Origin: a virus
Direction: 5' to 3' (one strand)
Virus record (IMG/VR): IMGVR_UViG_3300044620_001904
Span: 1 to 64,000 of that record
DNA: 64,000 nt
This document shows positions 48,318 through 62,050 of this stretch, piece after piece; positions within the stretch are counted from its first letter, which is position 1, and each line of letters begins with the position of its first letter. Under the pieces are notes generated by a model, which was not told where the DNA came from, did no database searches, and worked only from the letters and a program-made list of their open reading frames with translations. Made by a program: the position numbers and the translations under genes.

Positions 48318-48602
48318 AAACCTGTAGGTTATTACTCCTCCTGAAACTGCAAGTCCTACACCTACTCCGAAAAATAAATTTCTCGGATAAGTTCTAAAAA
48401 AATTTGGTCTATAATATATGGTTGGATAAGGACCGTAAAAATTATAGTCAAACATGGAAGCTCCTAACATCATAGTTCCAGCCGATATCATAAAAGTTGA
48501 AGACTTTAACTTTTTTTGGTATAAAATGGCCTGAGATTTGCCGATTTGACAAATACTCAGACCAATTATTAATGATATTAAAAATAATTTAAAGTTTTTC
48601 AT
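48309..48602 (-). CDS. Small membrane protein
   Basis: Signal-like N-terminus and two hydrophobic segments. Confidence 0.5.
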   Translation of the reverse strand: MKNFKLFLISLIIGLSICQIGKSQAILYQKKLKSSTFMISAGTMMLGASMFDYNFYGPYPTIYYRPNFFRTYPRNLFFGVGVGLAVSGGVITYRFLR

Positions 48603-49650
48603 ATTTTGGTTTAATTAATTTCCATATTATTTGACTATAATCTTTTCTATCCCACATTGCAAACATTACAGAATGTAATTCTCTTTTATTAATATTAGTT
48701 TGAACGAACTTTGCAAATTCAGATTTGGTTGGTTCAGGATCGACATCATTATATTTTCCATATCTGAAATAATCGTGCATTTTACCACAATATTCAGATA
48801 TTTGAAAATGATGATATTTTAGATTTCCAACATATAATTTTATTTTTTTATAAAATTCGTCAGGAACATCTTTAAGTAAAGATTCTATATCGTCTCCATT
48901 TTTAAGACATTCCCATATTGAGGTGGTCGATATTTGTGTCATTATTTTATGTAATCTCAAATATTCATCACCTTTTATTTTTATTCTATCTCCGTTAGAA
49001 AACTTAACAACAAAACCTTCCTCATTATCTTTTATCATAGATTTAAGTTCTTTGTAGTCCTTGATTCCATCGTATTTTTTGGCCAATTTGAACCCCAAAT
49101 TTTTTATCATATTAGAAAATCTAACGTCATAATTGTCTGAGTATAAATCAACTTCTTGACCGGTTTTGGTGTTTATCATACCAAGTAGAATGACATCTTC
49201 AAAATCATATTGGCACACTATTCTATTTTGTTTGTATATGATTTCAAACAAATAAGTATAATCCTTATGTAAGGACGCGAAATCATATTTAAACATCATT
49301 TCATACCCCTTAACCGCTTGATCAGAAGTAAATGATCCGCGAGTTGCCATAATCCAACCACCGTTATAATAGAAAAAAATACCAAGTGAGCCGTCTAATT
49401 TATCATACACATCAAACTTTTCGGTTGCGGAGTGTTTTTGTTCACTAAGATTAAAAAATTTTTTAAACGGGCGAGCAACAACATTCCCATTGTCATCAGT
49501 TACCAAACCACGGCACATTAGAGTAATATCGTCCCACAGATTTTCATATTGAACCTTTTCATTATAGTTCCATATAGTTAATGGTAAAGTTGGATGTACT
49601 TGTTTATAAAGTAATCCCTCGTTATAATATTTCTCTAAGGTTTCTAACAT
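48589..49650 (-). CDS. RNA ligase, T4 Rnl1-like
   Basis: CRGLV, PFKKFFN, KLDGSL (motif I), ATRGSF, FEII, EGFVV and IKIK motifs. Confidence 0.88.
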   Translation of the reverse strand: MLETLEKYYNEGLLYKQVHPTLPLTIWNYNEKVQYENLWDDITLMCRGLVTDDNGNVVARPFKKFFNLSEQKHSATEKFDVYDKLDGSLGIFFYYNGGWIMATRGSFTSDQAVKGYEMMFKYDFASLHKDYTYLFEIIYKQNRIVCQYDFEDVILLGMINTKTGQEVDLYSDNYDVRFSNMIKNLGFKLAKKYDGIKDYKELKSMIKDNEEGFVVKFSNGDRIKIKGDEYLRLHKIMTQISTTSIWECLKNGDDIESLLKDVPDEFYKKIKLYVGNLKYHHFQISEYCGKMHDYFRYGKYNDVDPEPTKSEFAKFVQTNINKRELHSVMFAMWDRKDYSQIIWKLIKPKYEKL

Positions 49651-49670: not shown

Positions 49671-50285
49671 TTATGACATATACAAAAGGGTGGGATTATC
49701 TTTTTGAACCGCAATTTTTTCACCGTGCATTTTTCTAAATTCTTCTAAATTGAAAGGTCTTGTGATTAGGTGAAAACCATTTTTGGTCGGAATTGTGGTT
49801 ATAGTATCATCTTTACCGGTTTGAAAAATTAAACTTTGGATGTTTGAAATTAAATTATTGTAAAATACATGTCTTTTAACCTCGCTCAAATCAAAATCTT
49901 TATGGTCAATATCAATAATCCATTTTTTATCTTTTTCATTTGAAAATGAACCGCAGACAGATTCGTAAGCCTTTCTAACCGATTTAAAATCCTTATTCAT
50001 AATTTGATCAGTAACCTTTTTTAAGGTATGAAAAGCGATTTTTTCATATGACCTACGATTAAGATTTATACAAGCCCTCGCATTATGGAAATTACAAAGA
50101 TGAATAATTTCATCAATTTTTGAATCCAAATATTCTATTGAATTGATGTAATATGTTTTGACCACATAAGAATTTGATCCAAGCTCAGGATTTTCTTTTT
50201 TGCGTTTCAAAATCTGAAGATGATAAAAATCATCCTCAGATTCAAAAGTTAGTAAATCTTTTATTGCAACTATATTATCTATCAT
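49671..50285 (-). CDS. Hypothetical protein (possible AEP/primpol-like fold)
   Basis: KWIIDID and TKNGFH motifs. Confidence 0.45.
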   Translation of the reverse strand: MIDNIVAIKDLLTFESEDDFYHLQILKRKKENPELGSNSYVVKTYYINSIEYLDSKIDEIIHLCNFHNARACINLNRRSYEKIAFHTLKKVTDQIMNKDFKSVRKAYESVCGSFSNEKDKKWIIDIDHKDFDLSEVKRHVFYNNLISNIQSLIFQTGKDDTITTIPTKNGFHLITRPFNLEEFRKMHGEKIAVQKDNPTLLYMS

Positions 50286-50950
50286 TTTTCTGAAAGTAAA
50301 AATTTGTTTGAGATGACTTTGAATGAAACTGATTTGTCATAAGACCTAATAACGATACCTTCTCTATCAAAATTTTGATTTAATTGTGATTTATCATCTG
50401 CAAAGTTAATTAATTCATCAATAGTTTCAGGTAGTTTGAAATCCTCAGATAATACAGGTACGTAACTAAGACCTAAAAAAGCCATAACATAAATAAAATC
50501 CGCGAATTCGTAATATTTGAAATTATCAATATCAAATATATTAAAAAATTTAACAGTTTGACCGATAACTTTATATGGATTTCCTTGTATACCTTCACCT
50601 ATAAGTTCACCCTGAAATGAAATATTTTTATTCAAACTTTTCATTTTATTTTCTAAATCCAAAATTCTTGCAACTCTCCAAAATGTGTTGGTTTCACTTT
50701 CTAAAAGTTCCAAATTACGAGAACATATACCAAACTCACCATCTTTGACATAAAATGTTGCAGAGGAACCATCAAGTTTTTCTGTAACATAGTAGGTATG
50801 TTTTTTCATTTCTTCATACTCAGAAGATAAGTTCTGACAATTATGAACAAGCACACCATTAGCGTAAAAATTATTTACATTTTCAACCCCAACATCGTAA
50901 CGCTTAGATTTATTTTTTATTTTTTTTATTGTTTTAATCTTATCTAACAT
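50282..50950 (-). CDS. Split intein C-half (37 aa) fused to the C-terminal half of a DRB0094-family RNA ligase
   Basis: YDVGVENVNNFYANGVLVHN|CQN; then TEKLDGSS, CSRN, QGELIG, REGIV and SFKVISNKFLL motifs. Confidence 0.9.
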   Translation of the reverse strand: MLDKIKTIKKIKNKSKRYDVGVENVNNFYANGVLVHNCQNLSSEYEEMKKHTYYVTEKLDGSSATFYVKDGEFGICSRNLELLESETNTFWRVARILDLENKMKSLNKNISFQGELIGEGIQGNPYKVIGQTVKFFNIFDIDNFKYYEFADFIYVMAFLGLSYVPVLSEDFKLPETIDELINFADDKSQLNQNFDREGIVIRSYDKSVSFKVISNKFLLSEK

Positions 50951-51912
50951 AATATTTCTTTTAATGCATTTAACAATTCAAAGTCACTCATATGATTAAT
51001 ATCACTTTCCCAAAGATAATAAACCTTATAGCCTTTTGATTCGATTAATTTAAGTTTTTTTTTATCTTTTTCCCAAACATCCTTAACGGTTAACCCATTT
51101 AGTAAAATATCAGATTCTTTATATAATTTAGGGCTACCATGCCAGAAGTCCCCCTGAACTTCAATTATGATTTTATTTTTAAAAATTAAATCCCAATTAT
51201 AACTATATAAAAAACCATTTGCCGTATAAGTAATATTTAATTCATTTAGAATTGATTGTATCCTTAATTCTTGTTTACTAACATATTTTAAATTACCTCT
51301 GGCCTTTTCAGTTAAAGATCTTAATTCATCTGTTGATAGTTTAGATAATCTATCTTTTTGAGATTTTGATATTTTTTCTTTAACCCAACCTAGTTGAGCT
51401 GGATTAATTATATTATCGCCATATCTTAACTTTAAAGTTTCTTTACTTTTTTTCAATACTTCGGTGTAGTTAATTTTTGAAATTGCATATTTTCTTATTG
51501 TTTCATTATTAAAATTGTTTTCATATCCATAGTTTTTAAAAAATGTGTTTTTCTTTTTTAATTTCACATCTTCGGATTGAGAAGGATTTTTAACACCGTA
51601 GCGATCAATTAAAGTTTTTTCAAATTTGTCTTTATATTGTTTAGTTTTTTTACTTTCGCTAGCAGTTCGTTTAATACCCAATAATAAAATATAATTACCA
51701 ACACTAACACCATATTTTTTTTTGATATCATCAATAGTACTCCCATCCAAATACATATTTTTAATATCGATCAAATTAATAGGTATTTTGGTTTCTAATG
51801 ATTTTAAATATAGAACCTCATTTTCAAGCTTATTATTAGGGTGATGATGATTAATATGTATTTTTAAATGATTTTTTTTTATAAACTCTTTTTTACAAAT
51901 TAGACATTCCAT
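50944..51912 (-). CDS. Free-standing endonuclease (Vsr/DUF559-like PD-(D/E)XK) between the split-intein halves
   Basis: C2H2 N-terminus, RYGVKNPSQ-type repeats, IIEVQGDFWHG...GYKVYYLWE motif. Confidence 0.82.
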   Translation of the reverse strand: MECLICKKEFIKKNHLKIHINHHHPNNKLENEVLYLKSLETKIPINLIDIKNMYLDGSTIDDIKKKYGVSVGNYILLLGIKRTASESKKTKQYKDKFEKTLIDRYGVKNPSQSEDVKLKKKNTFFKNYGYENNFNNETIRKYAISKINYTEVLKKSKETLKLRYGDNIINPAQLGWVKEKISKSQKDRLSKLSTDELRSLTEKARGNLKYVSKQELRIQSILNELNITYTANGFLYSYNWDLIFKNKIIIEVQGDFWHGSPKLYKESDILLNGLTVKDVWEKDKKKLKLIESKGYKVYYLWESDINHMSDFELLNALKEILC

Positions 51913-51961
51913 AACATATTTATTTACATATAAATATCTAACTTTATATAAAAAACAGAAC

Positions 51962-52714
51962 TTAATCCGTTATTTTTACAACTTCATCACCTAAAAGTTC
52001 TTTAACTTCTCTATAACAATTAAGTTCTGGTAACCAAATTCTATGGTTACCTGTTAGTTTAAGAATTTTACCTGAAATTAATTCAATTTCATACCAATCA
52101 TTATTATTTTTTTGTACTGAGTGAGAATTTATGGTGTTCATTTCGTTTTTGTTTTCAAAAACATTAAAACTCAAAACTTTACCAATATATTTAGTTTCAC
52201 AAATTTCTTTGATTGTTTTAATACCATCTTCAGTTATTAATTCGGTTTCTTCAGATAAACATCTCACCTCGTCGGTTTTAGATATAAATGATGGAAACAA
52301 ACCTTTTACCTTACCAGCAAGTTCTGCCGGAATTGGAGGCTCGTATTTATTAATCCCCAACATCATAGTTACATCCATACCAACCTTAAAATCTAAGTTA
52401 GTGTAATTAATTAACGATAAAGGTAAAATCAAACCTTGACTAACCTGTCCGCGAAGTTTTACGGTTCTCAAACGAAAACCTTCAGAACCGTCGGCCATCT
52501 TTTTATATGATGATTTTCGCAAAAATTCGAATTCAGGTTTAATAGGTAAAAATGAGTCAATTTCGCAATAAACTACTTTGTCACCAACTTTGTGACCTAC
52601 ATCTTTTGCAACAACTACTTTCCATCCATCAACGATGGCCAATTCTATTTTATCAGCACCCTCAATTGGGCGCAAATCAGATATAATTCTAATACTTGCT
52701 AATTTTCTTTCCAT
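51962..52714 (-). CDS. N-terminal half of the DRB0094-family RNA ligase fused to the split intein N-half (99 aa)
   Basis: RKLASI...PIEGADKIE...YCEIDSFLP...LRGQVSQGL...KTDEVR|CLSEET...LTGNHRIW. Confidence 0.9.
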   Translation of the reverse strand: MERKLASIRIISDLRPIEGADKIELAIVDGWKVVVAKDVGHKVGDKVVYCEIDSFLPIKPEFEFLRKSSYKKMADGSEGFRLRTVKLRGQVSQGLILPLSLINYTNLDFKVGMDVTMMLGINKYEPPIPAELAGKVKGLFPSFISKTDEVRCLSEETELITEDGIKTIKEICETKYIGKVLSFNVFENKNEMNTINSHSVQKNNNDWYEIELISGKILKLTGNHRIWLPELNCYREVKELLGDEVVKITD

Positions 52715-55514: not shown

Positions 55515-55590
55515 GGGTGTTGTATGGGATTTGAGCCCATGACCTTCTGAACCACAATCAGACGTTCTCACCAACTGAACTAACAACACC
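55515..55590 (-). tRNA. tRNA-His(GUG)
   Basis: UCUGA-UU-GUG-GU-UCAGA; G-1 present. Confidence 0.85.
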
Positions 55591-55595
55591 ATATT

Positions 55596-55683
55596 TGGCG
55601 GAAAAGAGAGGTGTCGATCCCCACACCACGAAGGTGCCACTAGTTTTCAAGACTAGGTTTAGCGCCGGCTAAATTTCTCTTCC
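55596..55683 (-). tRNA. tRNA-Ser(UGA)
   Basis: CUAGU-CU-UGA-AA-ACUAG; long variable arm; GCCA end encoded. Confidence 0.85.
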
Positions 55684-55691
55684 ATTTGTTG

Positions 55692-56038: not shown

Positions 56039-56181
56039 ATTTTGATGAGTCACGGACTTGTGTACCGTATGTCCCCCTTTAAATTATTCACTAACCCAGG
56101 GTGTGGGGAAACTCATCATAATAACCCCCTTGATCGGATTAACGGACCGACTGCCATATCGGAAGTGGGGGTTAGACTCCG

Positions 56182-56268: not shown

Positions 56269-56273
56269 ATATA

Positions 56274-56461
56274 AAACACCCTAATTTATCCAACTTACAG
56301 GTGTTGCGGTTGTCCTCATTTCTGAGTTAGGAATAGTCATTTGTCCTTACGAGGTCGAGTTGACTTGCTCTGAAGTTATCCCCCTCCACTCCAATGTAGG
56401 TTCCCATACGGCGATCAAACCGTTTTTCATCGTATTGGGCGTACTATCCGTTGTCGTGTTT
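56274..56461 (-). ncRNA. Unknown ~188-nt structured RNA
   Basis: GC-elevated, closed by AAACAC/GUGUUU, internal hairpins. Confidence 0.45.
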
Positions 56462-56470
56462 CGGAACGTG

Positions 56471-56576
56471 TAGTCAGGACAGGATTCGAACCTGTATGGG
56501 TTTTTGAGACATCACTTCCTCTCGGTGTTCCACCCAGTTTATTTCAACTTGCGTCTACCAATTCCGCCACCTGACT
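56471..56576 (-). ncRNA. tRNA-like element A (AGUCAGG acceptor, no canonical anticodon arm)
   Basis: AGUCAGG-UGGCGGAAUUGGUAGACGC-[variable]-UACAGGUUCGAAUCCUGU-CCUGACU-A. Confidence 0.7.
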
Positions 56577-56581
56577 ATTCG

Positions 56582-56725
56582 TTATTTCATTTTTTGTACT
56601 TCTTCAATTAACTCAATAAACATTGATTTTGTTATATGTTCCTGCTTTACCCACATATAAATTACCCCCATTCTTTCGTGGTAATCTTTTTTAACTTGTA
56701 ATTTTTCAATCAAATCTTTTATCAT
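56582..56725 (-). CDS. 47-aa hypothetical protein between tRNA-like elements A and B
   Basis: Probable start MIKDLIEKLQ; the longer ORF call runs into element B. Confidence 0.45.
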   Translation of the reverse strand: MIKDLIEKLQVKKDYHERMGVIYMWVKQEHITKSMFIELIEEVQKMK

Positions 56726-56744
56726 AACCTCGTATTTTATTTTG

Positions 56745-56858
56745 TAGTCAGGACAGGATTCGAACCTGTAATGATATGCCCCGCACATATCTGGATGGTC
56801 TAGAATTAGTTGTATAATTCGGAATTCACCACAATGTTACCAATTACACCACCTGACT
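56745..56858 (-). ncRNA. tRNA-like element B
   Basis: Acceptor and T arm identical to A; unrelated middle region with two hairpins. Confidence 0.7.
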
Positions 56859-56860
56859 AT

Positions 56861-56940
56861 TTGAGGATGAGAAGTCCTCTGTGTTGTAAGTTTTAGAACC
56901 AAAGGAACCGCACTCATCCATCCTTTCTCAAGGGAACAAC
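56861..56940 (-). ncRNA. Small RNA with loop-loop (kissing) pseudoknot
   Basis: UCC[CUUGAGAAA]GGA and GAGGA[CUUCUCA]UCCUC have complementary loops UGAGAA/UUCUCA; GUUGU/ACAAC stem. Confidence 0.5.
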
Positions 56941-56947
56941 AAATTAG

Positions 56948-57021: not shown

Positions 57022-57023
57022 AT

Positions 57024-57234
57024 TCACCCCACCTTGAGATTTGAGGTGAGTAGTTATTTCGGTTTTCTATTTCTTAAAAACCTGCGGGGCGTCCCCCATT
57101 AAAACAGCCAACACTACTGGGAGAGATTGTGTCAGTCCCTTTATCCCACGATGTCCCACTCTAGCCGTAGACATTCTGCTAGTCCATTGTTAAATGAGTC
57201 TTGGACAAAAGACTGCTGAGTATCTCTTACTCAT
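57024..57234 (-). ncRNA. Unknown ~210-nt structured RNA
   Basis: UGAGUA-AGAGA-UACUCA hairpin; AGUCUU-UUGUCC-AAGACU with GUCCA/UGGAC pseudoknot potential; further stems. Confidence 0.45.
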
Positions 57235-57236
57235 TG

Positions 57237-57905: not shown

Positions 57906-58003
57906 ATTTTTTATACCAACAATGTCAAAGAACCTTGTTCTAATCTTTCACAAAGGTAAATCAAATTTTTTAATCCAACAAATCTATGTGAAAGATTTTT
58001 TTG

Positions 58004-58101: not shown

Positions 58102-58650
58102 CTAAGTGTTTTTTTTCAAAAAATTGTCCCTAAACATATCAACAATTCCAATAATTTCATTTTTGAATTTTGAATGTATATATAGATGATGTGTTGGACA
58201 CAAAGGAATCAAATTTTCCGGTGAGTTATTTTTTTTATTACAATCATAATGGTGGATTGCCACTATTTTAGATTCACCACATACCACGCATCGTTTTTGG
58301 TGATGTTCAAAACCTATTCTACGGTATCCATTTCTTTCTCTATTTTCAACAGAACCGACCCAATTAGGGTTATTAGGACCACTTCTGAAAAAACTATTTG
58401 AGCAAGAATAAGAACAAGTTGTTTTTTCATGTTTATGATTTGTAATAGTAACGAACACATTACCACAAATTGGACATTTTTTTTCCAAGTAATCGTATTT
58501 AGTTTTTTTCTTTTTCAAATGTGAAATATCTACACTATGAAGTTCTATAAACTCAAAAAATTTTTTTCTAGTTTTACCATTATCATAACCATAAATTGAT
58601 TTTATTGCGTCAGTAATAGTTTGAGAATTTTTTATTATTTCTGTTTCCAT
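58102..58650 (-). CDS. HNH homing endonuclease inserted in the tRNA operon
   Basis: CPICG...CSYSC; CVVCG...HHYD.NKKNN.PENLIPLCPTHH. Confidence 0.85.
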   Translation of the reverse strand: METEIIKNSQTITDAIKSIYGYDNGKTRKKFFEFIELHSVDISHLKKKKTKYDYLEKKCPICGNVFVTITNHKHEKTTCSYSCSNSFFRSGPNNPNWVGSVENRERNGYRRIGFEHHQKRCVVCGESKIVAIHHYDCNKKNNSPENLIPLCPTHHLYIHSKFKNEIIGIVDMFRDNFLKKNT

Positions 58651-58712
58651 ACATATAAATATGTTAGAAATCGTAAAAAACTAATTTGGTCAAACTTTTT
58701 CAATACGACAAG

Positions 58713-58785
58713 TAGAGTAGACAGGACTCGAACCTGCACGCACTTGCTCCCAAAGCAAGGGACCTTCCAATTGGTCAACTACTCT
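58713..58785 (-). tRNA. tRNA-Pro(UGG)
   Basis: CUUGC-UU-UGG-GA-GCAAG. Confidence 0.87.
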
Positions 58786-58841
58786 ATATGAAAAACATAA
58801 TTTTGTAATTACAACACTTAATAACCAATATTTCAAAGAAC

Positions 58842-58879
58842 AAAAAAAAACCCCGAACTTTTTACGGTTCAGGGTTTTT
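58842..58879 (-). terminator. Attenuator terminator of tRNA operon 1
   Basis: AAAAACCCUGAAC-CGUAAAAA-GUUCGGGG-U9; the CUGAACC in its 5' arm is complementary to GGUUCAG in the leader ORF. Confidence 0.85.
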
Positions 58880-58899
58880 ATATGATAATTTTAACTATA

Positions 58900-59004
58900 T
58901 CAACTTTTAACTACTGAACCAATGAATGTACGAAACATCCCAGGATACCAACAATTACCTTGTGGTTTCGAACTAATGACGTTATGTAAATTTATTGTTT
59001 TCAT
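58900..59004 (-). CDS. Leader peptide 1 (34 aa) of the tRNA operon attenuator
   Basis: MKTINLHNVISSKPQGNCWYPGMFRTFIGSVVKS*; promoter TACTTTTG at 59025-59032. Confidence 0.8.
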   Translation of the reverse strand: MKTINLHNVISSKPQGNCWYPGMFRTFIGSVVKS

Positions 59005-59419
59005 AGTTTGTTATATAAGTATTACAAAAGTAGTAAAAATATCAATACAAGTCAAATATTTTTTTCACCACCTAAAATAAATTGTTGCTATTCCTATCGC
59101 AAATGTTAAGACTCTACGTTTTTCAGGATGATAAGGAGTTTTTTGATATGAAATACCAATATCAAACCACCATTCGCCATCAAAATTGTTCCAAACAAAT
59201 TCTGTTTTCATGTCTTATCGTTTAATTTTAAAACATTAAAGTTCTAACCAAGTATCCAATTAATTCATTAAGTAATGCAAAAAAACCAACTATGGATCCA
59301 ATTCCAAATACCGACATCAATATAAATTGTGTCATAATTGCAAAAGTTGATGGTTCCCTTTTGAATTGGTTTTTCTTGTAAAATTTTGAAAAAAAAGATG
59401 TTTGCATATGGTTTTATTT

Positions 59420-59632
59420 TTAGATTTCGCTCAAATATGATTTCAGGTTAGCAAGTTCAATTTTTAATCTTACGATTTCATCGTTTTGCAATTTTATATC
59501 TTCCAGTCTTTCCTTTAAAACCTCAAAAGAATAATCGATAATTTGTTGTTCAATTTCGGTCAAATCTTCTTTTTTTACAAGAATTTTCTCCAAAATAAAC
59601 TCACAATATTTGTCTTTTTGAGATTTAAACAT
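59420..59632 (-). CDS. Hypothetical protein
   Basis: ORF after a TATCTTTG promoter. Confidence 0.5.
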   Translation of the reverse strand: MFKSQKDKYCEFILEKILVKKEDLTEIEQQIIDYSFEVLKERLEDIKLQNDEIVRLKIELANLKSYLSEI

Positions 59633-59685
59633 TTTGTTTTTTGTTGGGCAAAGATATAACTTTTATCTATCTCTGCCAAATTTTT

Positions 59686-59919
59686 TTAAAAAATCGTGTG
59701 ATCCCCAAAGTTATCGTCCCAAGGACAAGGGATGGACTTTCTATCATCATCACGAGTTGGTTGGATGATATCAGAAATTTCAGATAATATCTGTAAAGCA
59801 TCCGTTTGAGCATTATCAGATTGGAAGATAGTTTCAGCATAAGGATATTTTTTGAAATAATCATCAAGAACATTGATAACTTCAGATTTTTTTTCGGGTG
59901 TCCAATTTATTTTATACAT
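59686..59919 (-). CDS. Hypothetical protein
   Basis: ORF downstream of tRNA-Thr. Confidence 0.5.
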   Translation of the reverse strand: MYKINWTPEKKSEVINVLDDYFKKYPYAETIFQSDNAQTDALQILSEISDIIQPTRDDDRKSIPCPWDDNFGDHTIF

Positions 59920-59933
59920 ATTCTATTTTTGTG

Positions 59934-60019
59934 AGCCAAGGGCCGGATTCGAACCGGCGTGTGAGTAAACTCATCCTCATTACAAGTGAGGTGCAATCGA
60001 CCATCTATGCGACCTAGGC
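59934..60019 (-). tRNA. tRNA-Thr(UGU) with long variable arm
   Basis: CCUCA-CU-UGU-AA-UGAGG; variable arm UGAG-UUUA-CUCA. Confidence 0.82.
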
Positions 60020-60026
60020 AAATTGT

Positions 60027-60102
60027 TGGTGACCCTGGCACGATTCGAACGTGCGACTGATTGCTTAGAAGGCAATTACTCTATCCTCTGAGTTACAGGG
60101 CC
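60027..60102 (-). tRNA. tRNA-Arg(UCU)
   Basis: AUUGC-CU-UCU-AA-GCAAU; ACCA end encoded. Confidence 0.92.
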
Positions 60103-60108
60103 TTATAA

Positions 60109-60285
60109 TTATATTTTCTTCACTTCATATCTATGACCACTGTCAGAATTTATCTCCATTAATTTTCTTGTGTTTTCTGCGTCTTCAAAAGTTTCAAACT
60201 CTAATACTTCCTCATGAGTGTCCAATATAATTACCGGCATCTCTACATTTCTGTCATTTTTTACAAATTTTACAATTACATACAT
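60109..60285 (-). CDS. 58-aa hypothetical protein (not in the ORF track)
   Basis: MYVIVKFVKNDRNVEMPVIILD...SDSGHRYEVKKI*. Confidence 0.55.
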   Translation of the reverse strand: MYVIVKFVKNDRNVEMPVIILDTHEEVLEFETFEDAENTRKLMEINSDSGHRYEVKKI

Positions 60286-60302
60286 AATAATTAGTTTTTT
60301 TT

Positions 60303-60377
60303 TGGCGGTCTATAAGGGAATCGAACCCTTACCATATCATAGACAGTGATATATCCTTGCCGTTAGACGAATAGACC
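60303..60377 (-). tRNA. tRNA-Asp(GUC)
   Basis: UAUCA-CU-GUC-UA-UGAUA (U37); GCCA end encoded. Confidence 0.88.
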
Positions 60378-60437
60378 AATTTTGTTTTACAAAGGTAGTA
60401 TAAACTTTTCAATTATACAACACATTTATTTTTTTTG

Positions 60438-60513
60438 TGGAGAAGATGGGAATCGAACCCACCACAAAAACATTGCAAGTGTTTCTCGCCAAAGCCTTGG
60501 TACATGCTCCCCC
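60438..60513 (-). tRNA. tRNA-Ala(UGC)
   Basis: AAACA-CU-UGC-AA-UGUUU; G3:U70. Confidence 0.85.
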
Positions 60514-60524
60514 AAATTATTTTG

Positions 60525-60610
60525 TAGTGCCGATGGGATTCGAACCCACGATTATCCTTTCGGATTCCAGATTGAAAGTCTGGTAGCCTAAACCACTAGC
60601 CGACGGCACC
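60525..60610 (-). tRNA. tRNA-Glu(UUC) with long variable arm
   Basis: CCAGA-CU-UUC-AA-UCUGG; variable arm AUCC-GAAA-GGAU. Confidence 0.82.
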
Positions 60611-60654
60611 ATTTATGATACAAAATTACAAAATATATTTCAAAGAACCAAAAA

Positions 60655-60683
60655 TAAAAAACCCACCTTTTTGGGGTGGGTTT
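60655..60683 (-). terminator. Attenuator terminator of tRNA operon 2
   Basis: AAACCCACC-CCAAAAA-GGUGGGUUUUUU; its CACCCC is complementary to GGGGUG in the leader ORF. Confidence 0.85.
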
Positions 60684-60706
60684 CAATATTTTAGAAAACT
60701 ACAATA

Positions 60707-60784
60707 TTATACCACACCCCGTAGAGTAAGTTCTGCTTCCGTTCTATCGGCAGTGGTGATATATATGTAGTTCAAATTTTTCAT
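60707..60784 (-). CDS. Leader peptide 2 (25 aa) of the tRNA operon attenuator
   Basis: MKNLNYIYITTADRTEAELTLRGVV*; promoter TATCTTTG at 60789-60796, 4 nt before the ATG. Confidence 0.82.
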   Translation of the reverse strand: MKNLNYIYITTADRTEAELTLRGVV

Positions 60785-60830
60785 AACACAAAGATACAAA
60801 GAATTTTTATAAAATCAATACCCTTATCCT

Positions 60831-61352
60831 TTATTTTCTTAATTTAGGTTTAGATTTCATTTTATCATATATCCTAACGAAATAATAAGGATCTTCCATC
60901 ACATAACAAAATTCATTCCTTGTTGTCGCGTTAAGGATTTTAACTTCTTTGATCGGATATTTTGACAATAAATCCATATCTTTGTCGTTATATCTAAACC
61001 ACATATCAATTCTACATGAAATACCAGGTCTAATATTCCACAAAGCAACGGAATCATTTTCTAAATAGAATGTAACACGACTTATTCTACTGCAAAAATG
61101 ATCGTCTTTGTAGGTTAACCTAAATTCGTGTAAATATTGATATTTTTTATCCATATCAACATTTGTTATTACCGGTTGGATTTCAAATAACGAATCCGAA
61201 TGGATATACGGCTTTGGTTGAAGAGGATCGGTCTCGGATCTTTCTTCGTACTTAGCGATGTGCTCACAGTGAGGACATGGTTTGTCTGTTTCAAATGGTG
61301 TGAAAGCCATAAACACCAATAAACAGATTGCGATAATTATAGAAGTTTTCAT
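60831..61352 (-). CDS. Secreted hypothetical protein
   Basis: Signal peptide; CPHCEH motif. Confidence 0.55.
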   Translation of the reverse strand: MKTSIIIAICLLVFMAFTPFETDKPCPHCEHIAKYEERSETDPLQPKPYIHSDSLFEIQPVITNVDMDKKYQYLHEFRLTYKDDHFCSRISRVTFYLENDSVALWNIRPGISCRIDMWFRYNDKDMDLLSKYPIKEVKILNATTRNEFCYVMEDPYYFVRIYDKMKSKPKLRK

Positions 61353-61549
61353 ATCTATAAATATTTGATTATTTTTAATATTTACATTTTTAAAAAAATA
61401 TTTATTCTTCTAAATTTTTAATTTCTTTACATTAAAATTACATTAATTTAAAACTAAAAAAAAGTTATTTGATATTTATTATAGTGACTTTAATTTTTTT
61501 TTATTGAAAATTTTATTATATTTGTATCTAATTTGTAATGATTATTAAC

Positions 61550-62050
61550 ATGGAAAGAGTTTTAGTTTTAAATTCTGATTATAGTCCTTTGAACGTAACG
61601 ACTGTCATTCGTGGTTTTAACTTAGTTAATAAAGGAAAGGCCGAGATATTAAAATCGGGCGAAAAACCGATAAGTGCTGGTTCATTATCATTTGCTCGCC
61701 CTTTGATAATAAGACTATTGGTTTATGTTAAATACAGGGTTAAAAACTTAAAAGTTAATAGGGCTAGAATTTATAAACGTGATGGTCATAAATGTGTATA
61801 TTGTGGGGCGAATAAAAATCTTACAATAGACCACGTTTTACCAAAATCTCGTGGTGGAACAAATAGATGGACTAATTTGGTTACATGCTGCGGTACTTGT
61901 AATAGAAAAAAAGGTGATAGAACTCCATATGAAGCAAATATGACTTTAAGTGTAAAACCTTATGAACCATCATTGTTTTCTGATGTATTTCATAATCACA
62001 TAAGTGATCTGTGGGATGAATTCAAACAAACGATGGGGTTGAATTATTGA
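61550..62050 (+). CDS. HNH endonuclease (McrA-like)
   Basis: VLVLNSDYSPL; RDGHKCVYCG...TIDHVLPKSRGG...WTNLVTCC..CN..K. Confidence 0.9.
   Translation: MERVLVLNSDYSPLNVTTVIRGFNLVNKGKAEILKSGEKPISAGSLSFARPLIIRLLVYVKYRVKNLKVNRARIYKRDGHKCVYCGANKNLTIDHVLPKSRGGTNRWTNLVTCCGTCNRKKGDRTPYEANMTLSVKPYEPSLFSDVFHNHISDLWDEFKQTMGLNY

Follow-up and report, generated by a model that had tools for sequence, protein, structure and literature searches.

The window analysed here comprises the first 64 kb (64,000 nucleotides) of a single 95,261-bp contig with a G+C content of 31%. The contig codes for a portal protein, a major head protein and a large terminase, and is therefore taken to be that of a phage. Its minus strand carries an array of 24 tRNA genes between 54.9 and 60.6 kb. 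Directly 3' of this array, on the same strand, are genes for two RNA ligases, a metallophosphoesterase and a protein with a cyclic-phosphate receiver domain. HNH endonuclease genes are found within the array (58102-58650) and beside it (61538-62050); the tRNA arrays of relatives have many gaps of 600-2000 nt, which suggest that insertions into these arrays are frequent. DNA of the locus is present in 24 sequencing runs labelled as freshwater, lake-water or fungus metagenomes, and a search of sequencing runs listed no RNA sequencing run carrying it. When contigs from four DNA runs were compared with positions 58780-60860, no Leader 2 variant was among the variants listed, so that no population-level covariation could be used.

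Five of the tRNA genes and a small ORF form a putatively regulated unit at 59933-60610 (minus strand, as are all features described below unless stated otherwise). As identified by ARAGORN and by Rfam tRNA matches, the genes are, in order of transcription, tRNA-Glu(ttc) (60610-60524), tRNA-Ala(tgc) (60510-60437), tRNA-Asp(gtc) (60377-60303), tRNA-Arg(tct) (60102-60027) and tRNA-Thr(tgt) (60019-59933); a 58-aa acidic ORF (60285-60109) lies between tRNA-Asp and tRNA-Arg. tRNA-Glu(UUC) and tRNA-Thr(UGU) each measure 87 nt and possess a long variable arm that is class-II-like and includes a 4-bp stem. Such an arm is unusual for the Glu and Thr identities; relatives have a tRNA-Thr(tgt) of 82-84 nt.

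The region ahead of this unit, designated Leader 2, is a module of about 190 nt. The order on the one strand is promoter, 25-codon ORF, terminator, box and tRNA genes. The promoter, P1, is made of a -33 element, TTG (60816-60818), placed 19 nt upstream of a -7 box of the Bacteroidota sigma-A type, TATCTTTG (60796-60789). The same 19-nt spacing is also found in other promoters of the array. The ORF (60784-60707) starts with the ATG at 60784-60782 and runs for 25 codons to a TAA stop at 60709-60707. Codons 10-18 (60757-60731) read ACC ACT GCC GAT AGA ACG GAA GCA GAA and specify TTADRTEAE, a run drawn from the amino acids of the five downstream tRNAs. An earlier note, made from the letters alone, had described a -7 box ending 4 nt before the ATG, a 25-codon ORF ahead of the Glu, Ala, Asp, Arg and Thr tRNAs and this nine-codon run; all three descriptions agree with the positions just given.

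The remainder of the module has the parts of a transcription attenuator. Segment 1 (60773-60743), which overlaps codons 4-14, is the 5' strand of an anti-antiterminator hairpin in the minimum free energy (MFE) structure. Segment 2 (60725-60696), defined by folding and pairing scores, has its core GGGGUGUGGU at 60720-60711, in codons 22-25, where the minus strand within the leader ORF reads GGGGTGTGGT. An intrinsic terminator (60684-60650), recognized from sequence and folding, has a GC-rich, 10-bp stem (60684-60658) and a T-run (60660-60650); its two arms contain segment 3, ACCCACCCC (60681-60673), and segment 4, GGUGGGU (GGTGGGT in the DNA; 60667-60661). The terminator is followed by a boxA-like box, GTTCTTTGAAATAT (60648-60635).

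In Flavobacterium psychrophilum, the sigma-A box TAnnTTTG occupies positions -12 to -5 (PMC9723704). The start of the P1 transcript is thus predicted at 60784, that is, at the A of the ATG. We regard a leaderless start as plausible only, since leaderless mRNAs are rare in Bacteroidota, amounting to about 4-5% (3.7-5.5%) in Bacteroides and Flavobacterium (PMC7366714, PMC9723704), since those homologous leaders (see below) that have a recognizable -7 box mostly carry it some 20-65 nt ahead of the start codon, and since no RNA data exist. The geometry of the promoter is the sole basis for this prediction. A few homologous leaders do have a -7-like box only 6 or 10 nt from the start codon. The ORF could also be delivered by readthrough from the upstream gene.

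Thr, Ala, Asp, Arg and Glu account for 26.6% of the codons in the phage's long ORFs. When the six frames of the whole genome (95,261 bp) are considered, TTADRTEAE is the only run of seven or more residues confined to these five amino acids. Runs of nine are expected 0.02 times genome-wide, and their frequency in 514,562 six-frame residues from related phage loci is 3.9e-6 per window; the run is thus beyond what chance would produce. At the codon level, strict cognates of the downstream anticodons make up six of the nine codons in the run, and six of the 11 in-set codons in the entire ORF. Four of these 11 can be read by the phage tRNAs through U34 superwobble alone (within the run, ACC, ACT and GCC), and one, the CGG at codon 22, cannot be read by tRNA-Arg(UCU). 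ACA, which is the best codon for tRNA-Thr(UGU) and the commonest Thr codon of the phage, is absent from the leader. The third positions of ACC, ACT and GCC find an explanation in the RNA structure, because these bases (codons 10-12) pair directly with GGGGUGUGG in the helix formed by segments 1 and 2.

To characterize this structure, the 135-nt leader RNA was folded in silico. Its computed free energy is -40.4 kcal/mol, as compared to -23.0 +/- 3.1 kcal/mol for shuffled sequences (z = -5.64), and none of 200 shuffles is as stable. In the MFE structure of the free RNA, a 1:2 hairpin (nt 12-42 paired with nt 60-89) stands next to the terminator. Segment 2, through GGGGUGUGGU, can pair alternatively with segment 1 or with the 5' arm of the terminator. 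With a ribosome footprint modelled on codons 10-13, the 1:2 hairpin opens, GGGGUG(U)GG pairs with CCCACCCC and the terminator is lost; with the modelled ribosome at the stop codon, the terminator alone forms. Equilibrium folding gives antitermination solely for stalls at codons 10-13, and stalls at codons 14-18 would need a kinetic argument. If the 3' arm of the terminator has not yet been transcribed, the 2:3 antiterminator is the best predicted structure, later stall sites included. The GGGGUG(U)GG/CCCACCCC duplex scores -15.9 kcal/mol, while the mean for 300 control windows is -5.5 +/- 3.2 kcal/mol and none of the 300 does as well, in line with the previous suggestion that the segment following the run can pair with the terminator. 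A scan of positions 58700-61000 against Rfam (E <= 1) gave no T-box match, and within the leader the gathering score was not attained for any family. Matches to Thr_leader and Phe_leader are sub-threshold and rest on the terminator hairpin.

Four routes were followed to gather relatives of the module: the phosphoesterase gene below the array, the box, a terminator-plus-box pattern and, in metagenomes, the antiterminator-terminator pattern of the family. An unsupervised pipeline was used that takes the longest ATG ORF ending no more than 100 nt from a terminator that precedes a box. Its output, together with the leader of contig L067, added by hand (its terminator is further from the box), constitutes a set of 20 non-redundant modules. 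Homologous ORFs of 20-25 codons are present in L176, L073, L074, L186, L018, L012, L066 and L054 (alignment A1). Metagenomes provided 48 distinct variants of the leader ORF and its peptide, which are not assembly duplicates of one sequence, and one sub-family alone has more than 120 matches in freshwater metagenomes. Other routes yielded no relative: a blastn search of phage GenBank records returned matches at the tRNA level only and no homologous leader; a degenerate back-translation of TTADRTEAE had no match in viral contigs; and no relatives of the upstream 173-aa protein or of a 546-aa protein were found in viral contigs. The contig behind L001, which is 97% identical, breaks inside the tRNA array and does not include the leader.

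Conservation in alignment A1 extends to the start, to the 3' end and to the terminator, and the middle of the ORF varies but remains open, in frame and of constant length. The peptide sequence as such is not conserved; its start, its end and its composition are. The composition changes along with the tRNA genes that follow. The closest homologue on a viral contig (L176:6622-6754, minus strand) precedes genes for Glu, Ala, Met, Met, Gly, Asp, Asp, Arg, Thr and Met tRNAs, and its run, GGTDRTEATT..MEM, has gained Gly and Met codons. In L067 (position 3513 onward), a 14-residue run of Ser, Tyr, His and Leu, LSLHSSLSYLLSYH, precedes Ser(tga), Tyr, His, His, Ser(gct), Leu(taa), Leu(tag) and Leu(caa), and all 18 in-set codons are cognate, covering the three Leu isoacceptors and the two for Ser. 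The run ahead of Pro, Pro, Asp, Asp, Tyr, Tyr, Pro, Ala, Ala, Gly, Gly, Gly and Met in L094 is composed of M, P, A, G, Y and D; LLGADLEAGD is found in L073 ahead of Leu, Met, Gly, Ala, Glu, Asp and Met; and RNINIHIN..WRRN in L069 ahead of Trp, His, His, Ile, Asn, Asn and Arg.

The match between peptide and tRNA set was evaluated by permutation. Across the 20 modules it amounts to 355, with 265 +/- 15 expected, and none of 20,000 permutations reaches as high. For 10 family representatives the values are 144 observed and 93 +/- 10 expected (0 of 200,000 permutations); within the family of Leader 2 itself (24 distinct leaders), they are 309 and 277 +/- 6 (0 of 100,000). In this latter family, leaders ahead of a Thr tRNA contain a mean of 4.9 Thr residues versus 1.9 otherwise, and those ahead of an Arg tRNA contain 1.2 Arg residues versus 0.6 otherwise; Ala content does not track the presence of an Ala tRNA. 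The alternative pairings are conserved as well. All 15 other modules that were folded display the same three-state behaviour, with terminators that are unrelated in sequence. In 15 of 19 modules, pairing between the 3' end of the ORF and the 5' arm of the terminator beats at least 94% of control windows. In alignment A1, the antiterminator pairing is kept in 94% of cells, as opposed to 36-60% when the partner is slid, and the terminator is paired in 98% of cells, with two covarying pairs. The earlier note had named in advance what would refute its proposal, namely homologues that keep the same peptide in front of different tRNA sets. The peptides differ and follow the sets, and no permutation attains the observed match. 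Its central idea, that the codons of the run report on the five downstream tRNAs and are coupled to a terminator/antiterminator switch, is thus supported by folding and comparative data; RNA data are lacking.

Altogether, we think it likely that Leader 2 is a ribosome-mediated attenuator of the leader-peptide type, controlling the entry of transcription from P1 into the Glu-Ala-Asp-Arg-Thr tRNA unit. The analysis shows the anatomy, the alternative pairings and their conservation, and the covariation between leader composition and tRNA set; translation of the ORF, ribosome stalling and readthrough are inferred. The proposed sequence of events is as follows. RNA would be made from P1, its start lying probably at or near the AUG. 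On RNA that is not translated, codons 4-14 would bind GGGGUGUGGU in the 1:2 hairpin, leaving the terminator free to form and causing termination. A ribosome that is not slowed would reach the UAA and mask GGGGUGUGGU; again the terminator would form and transcription would end at the T-run. If a usable tRNA is lacking, a ribosome would stall in the Thr/Ala/Asp/Arg/Glu run and the 1:2 hairpin would melt. The freed GGGGUGUGG could then pair with CCCACCCC in the 5' arm of the terminator before the 3' arm is made, and RNA polymerase would read through the boxA-like box into the tRNA genes. The box, whose role is likewise inferred, would render polymerases that have passed the attenuator resistant to terminators in preparation for the hairpin-rich array. 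The tRNAs produced would relieve the slow decoding of their own codons, closing a supply-on-demand feedback loop. With a mini-gene spelled in the amino acids of five tRNAs and joined to a switchable stop, the phage probably makes these tRNAs only when they are short.

The physiological trigger is also an inference, and the signal that is sensed is not settled, as stalling in a leader also answers amino-acid starvation. One could thus envisage a translated ORF, coupled to the terminator, that obeys a different logic or signal: general translation stress or amino-acid starvation instead of tRNA supply, an effect exerted via transcription-translation coupling or Rho, or mainly the processing or stability of the readthrough RNA. 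Any shortage of charged tRNA would stall the leader, ACC, ACT, GCC and CGG are not the best codons for the phage tRNAs, and secondary promoter-like boxes exist downstream, all of which could be accommodated in this way. We nonetheless find such an explanation unlikely: a general stress sensor would have no need for a peptide whose composition changes with the tRNA set from one cluster to the next, even inside a single family, and the arrangement of the 1:2, 2:3 and 3:4 pairings is the classical one in which a stall leads to readthrough.

The downstream boxes deserve consideration in their own right. A -7-like sequence, TAATTTTG (60628-60621), with a TTG 20 nt upstream (60651-60649), is a possible secondary promoter located past the terminator and 10 nt ahead of tRNA-Glu. 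Its TTG-N20 geometry recurs in the boxes before tRNA-Asp, where the element is TACCTTTG (60397-60390), and before tRNA-Phe. Judged by their sequence, the TAATTTTG and TACCTTTG elements look like real promoters. Being placed downstream of the terminator, they may allow basal or partial expression of the tRNA unit that bypasses the attenuator. In one branch of relatives (L018, L012 and L054), the stretch separating the terminator from tRNA-Glu contains two promoters along with a small acidic ORF. Taken to the extreme, the arrangement could mean that the leader is a separate small transcription unit, encoding a small protein or an sRNA and ending at its own terminator, and that the tRNAs are made from the TAATTTTG and TACCTTTG promoters without any regulatory link. 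The promoter-like boxes downstream of the terminator here, and the promoters that follow it in the L018-type relatives, would be in keeping with this possibility, which we rate as less likely still than a difference in signal. It leaves unexplained the agreement between the composition of the peptide and the tRNA set in 20 modules, as well as the complementarity of the 3' end of the ORF to the terminator arm where terminators are unrelated, and a peptide conserved just in start, end and composition also speaks against it. Furthermore, 13 of 17 modules have no promoter-like box between the terminator and the first tRNA gene, so that the tRNAs in these modules depend on readthrough. Finally, we give almost no credence to the idea that the ORF arose by chance in the 3' UTR of the upstream 173-aa gene and that the hairpin is that gene's terminator: the ORF does start only 46 nt after the stop of the upstream ORF (60831-61352), and AT-rich DNA commonly contains short open frames, but with about 0.02 such runs expected genome-wide the sole one is located here, the module is kept beside tRNA clusters in contigs without the 173-aa gene, and the fold is far more stable than that of shuffled sequences (z score as above).

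The small acidic ORFs of the relatives belong to a protein family with the motif M-D/E-Y-S-P-I-L-G-V, encoded from a promoter of its own between the leader module and tRNA-Glu (L018:2049-2159, L012:3886-4002 and relatives). The phage carrying Leader 2 has no acidic gene before tRNA-Glu and has instead the 58-aa acidic ORF situated further down in the unit (60109-60285). The possibility that the leader ORF might be a decayed copy of this protein was considered and dropped, as the true leader homologue is found upstream of the acidic gene in the same loci.

The array contains a second module with the same layout. In Leader 1 (58842-59004), the promoter reads TTTG-N20-TACTTTTG, the ORF has 34 codons and specifies 17 different residues, and a terminator (58879-58846) is followed by the same 14-nt box as in Leader 2 (58841-58828) and by tRNA-Pro. 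Homologues of Leader 1 occur in L176, L079, L015 and L025. A third box, GTTCTTTGA, is found at 57906-58002, directly behind a TACCTTTG promoter-like box and before tRNA-Lys; neither a leader ORF nor a terminator accompanies it, and not every sub-unit of the array is therefore gated.

The box exists elsewhere in a 21-nt form, GTT(A/C)TTTGA(A/C)ATAT(C/T)GGT(A/T)AT, of which Leader 2 keeps only the first 14 nt. In 28 of 32 viral contigs, the 21-mer is located at the head of tRNA clusters, with widely differing tRNA sets behind it. It is also found in bacterial genomes, mostly of Bacteroidota. In the rrn operons of two Bacteroidales MAGs (L239:2245-2265; L219:5900-5920 and L219:398-418), it is positioned 27-28 nt upstream of the 23S rRNA gene, after the spacer tRNAs. 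In L227, L230 and L233 (MAGs of Sediminibacterium and other Bacteroidota), the 21-mer follows a tRNA gene. The core of the box, GTTCTTTGA, presumably corresponds to the boxA of other bacteria, which it resembles. By analogy, given its position in rrn operons and the core GUUCUUUGA, the box fits an rrn boxA, the site of NusB/S10 binding; no data on NusB/S10 binding to it are available, and it could instead be a processing site. The same 21-mer is thus shared with the region upstream of Bacteroidales 23S rRNA, with the difference that the phage box heads tRNA clusters.

Attenuators that respond to more than one amino acid are familiar from enterobacteria, where the thr leader contains Thr and Ile codons and the ilvGMEDA leader Ile, Val and Leu codons; trpL, hisL and pheL are further examples. 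Leader 2 shares with attenuators of the thr, ilvGMEDA and trpL type a short ORF rich in regulatory codons, the 1:2, 2:3 and 3:4 hairpins, the use of several amino acids in one leader, a stop codon placed such that the terminating ribosome masks segment 2, and an intrinsic terminator before the regulated genes. It differs from them in that they regulate biosynthetic enzymes whereas the phage leader would regulate tRNAs, and in that its regulatory codons name the downstream tRNAs, with five amino acids represented here and up to about 18 in sister modules. A Bacteroidota-type promoter, a possibly leaderless mRNA and a boxA-like box after the terminator further set it apart. The pheST attenuator, with its pheM leader, controls a synthetase, responds to one amino acid and belongs to a cellular genome; like the phage leader, it subjects a gene of the translation apparatus to leader-peptide attenuation through codons for the matching amino acid. 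T-box riboswitches also sense tRNA status, switch between terminator and antiterminator and control translation-related genes, but they bind uncharged tRNA directly, without an ORF. As an attenuator, Leader 2 is a classical mechanism with a new target (tRNA genes) and a new matching rule. A literature search found no paper on leader-peptide, trp-operon-style control of tRNA genes.

The nearest published case is the trn operon of Anabaena sp. PCC 7120, a silent array of 26 tRNA genes that is induced by translational stress and is controlled by the repressor TrcR acting on direct repeats over the promoter (PMC8421152, PMC10272220). An accessory tRNA array is kept off until translation is impaired in Anabaena, as it would be in the phage, and RNA-repair genes are associated with it, rtcB in the Anabaena operon and RNA ligases in the phage. 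The difference resides in the control, exerted by TrcR in Anabaena; the paper on it makes no reference to a leader peptide, to attenuation or to a terminator.

How phages express their tRNA genes, and why they have such genes at all, is an open question. Through a leader peptide spelled by codons of the downstream tRNAs, the phage would be gauging decoding capacity one codon at a time and replenishing only the tRNAs that are scarce, in a feedback loop acting on the translation apparatus itself. Attenuation of the kind described by Yanofsky would be extended from amino-acid supply to tRNA supply, and the sequence of a leader would read out which tRNAs share one regulatory unit. Such a leader would also provide a connection, open to testing, with host defences that target tRNAs and with RNA repair in phages. 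Speculatively, and with considerable reservation, one may propose that these leaders are a widespread, unpublished class of phage tRNA-supply sensors, each turning its tRNA block on only when the matching codons are decoded slowly, for example after the loss of host tRNAs to an anticodon nuclease of the host or to some other tRNA-depleting defence, and that they act together with the downstream island of RNA ligase, phosphoesterase and cyclic-phosphate repair functions.

Some further observations concern the array and the repair genes. Three G+C-rich spacers of the array, 142-678 nt in length (57022-57235, 56039-56180 and 56269-56946), appear to be structured and contain neither a tRNA call nor a long ORF. 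The spacer between tRNA-Phe and tRNA-His (55590-55690) resembles a tRNA-Ser(UGA) whose T-arm and acceptor stem are degenerate, and it is not called by ARAGORN; in the 97%-related L001 contig, a tRNA-Ser(tga) is called at this position. Downstream of the array, at 50282-52714, an RNA ligase is apparently split across three ORFs, encoding in order a PHA02142 OB domain with the N-terminal part of an intein, a DUF7487 protein, and the C-terminal part of the intein with the RNA_ligase domain, which suggests an intein-bearing or a disrupted ligase gene. A ligase resembling T4 Rnl1 is encoded at 48589-49650.
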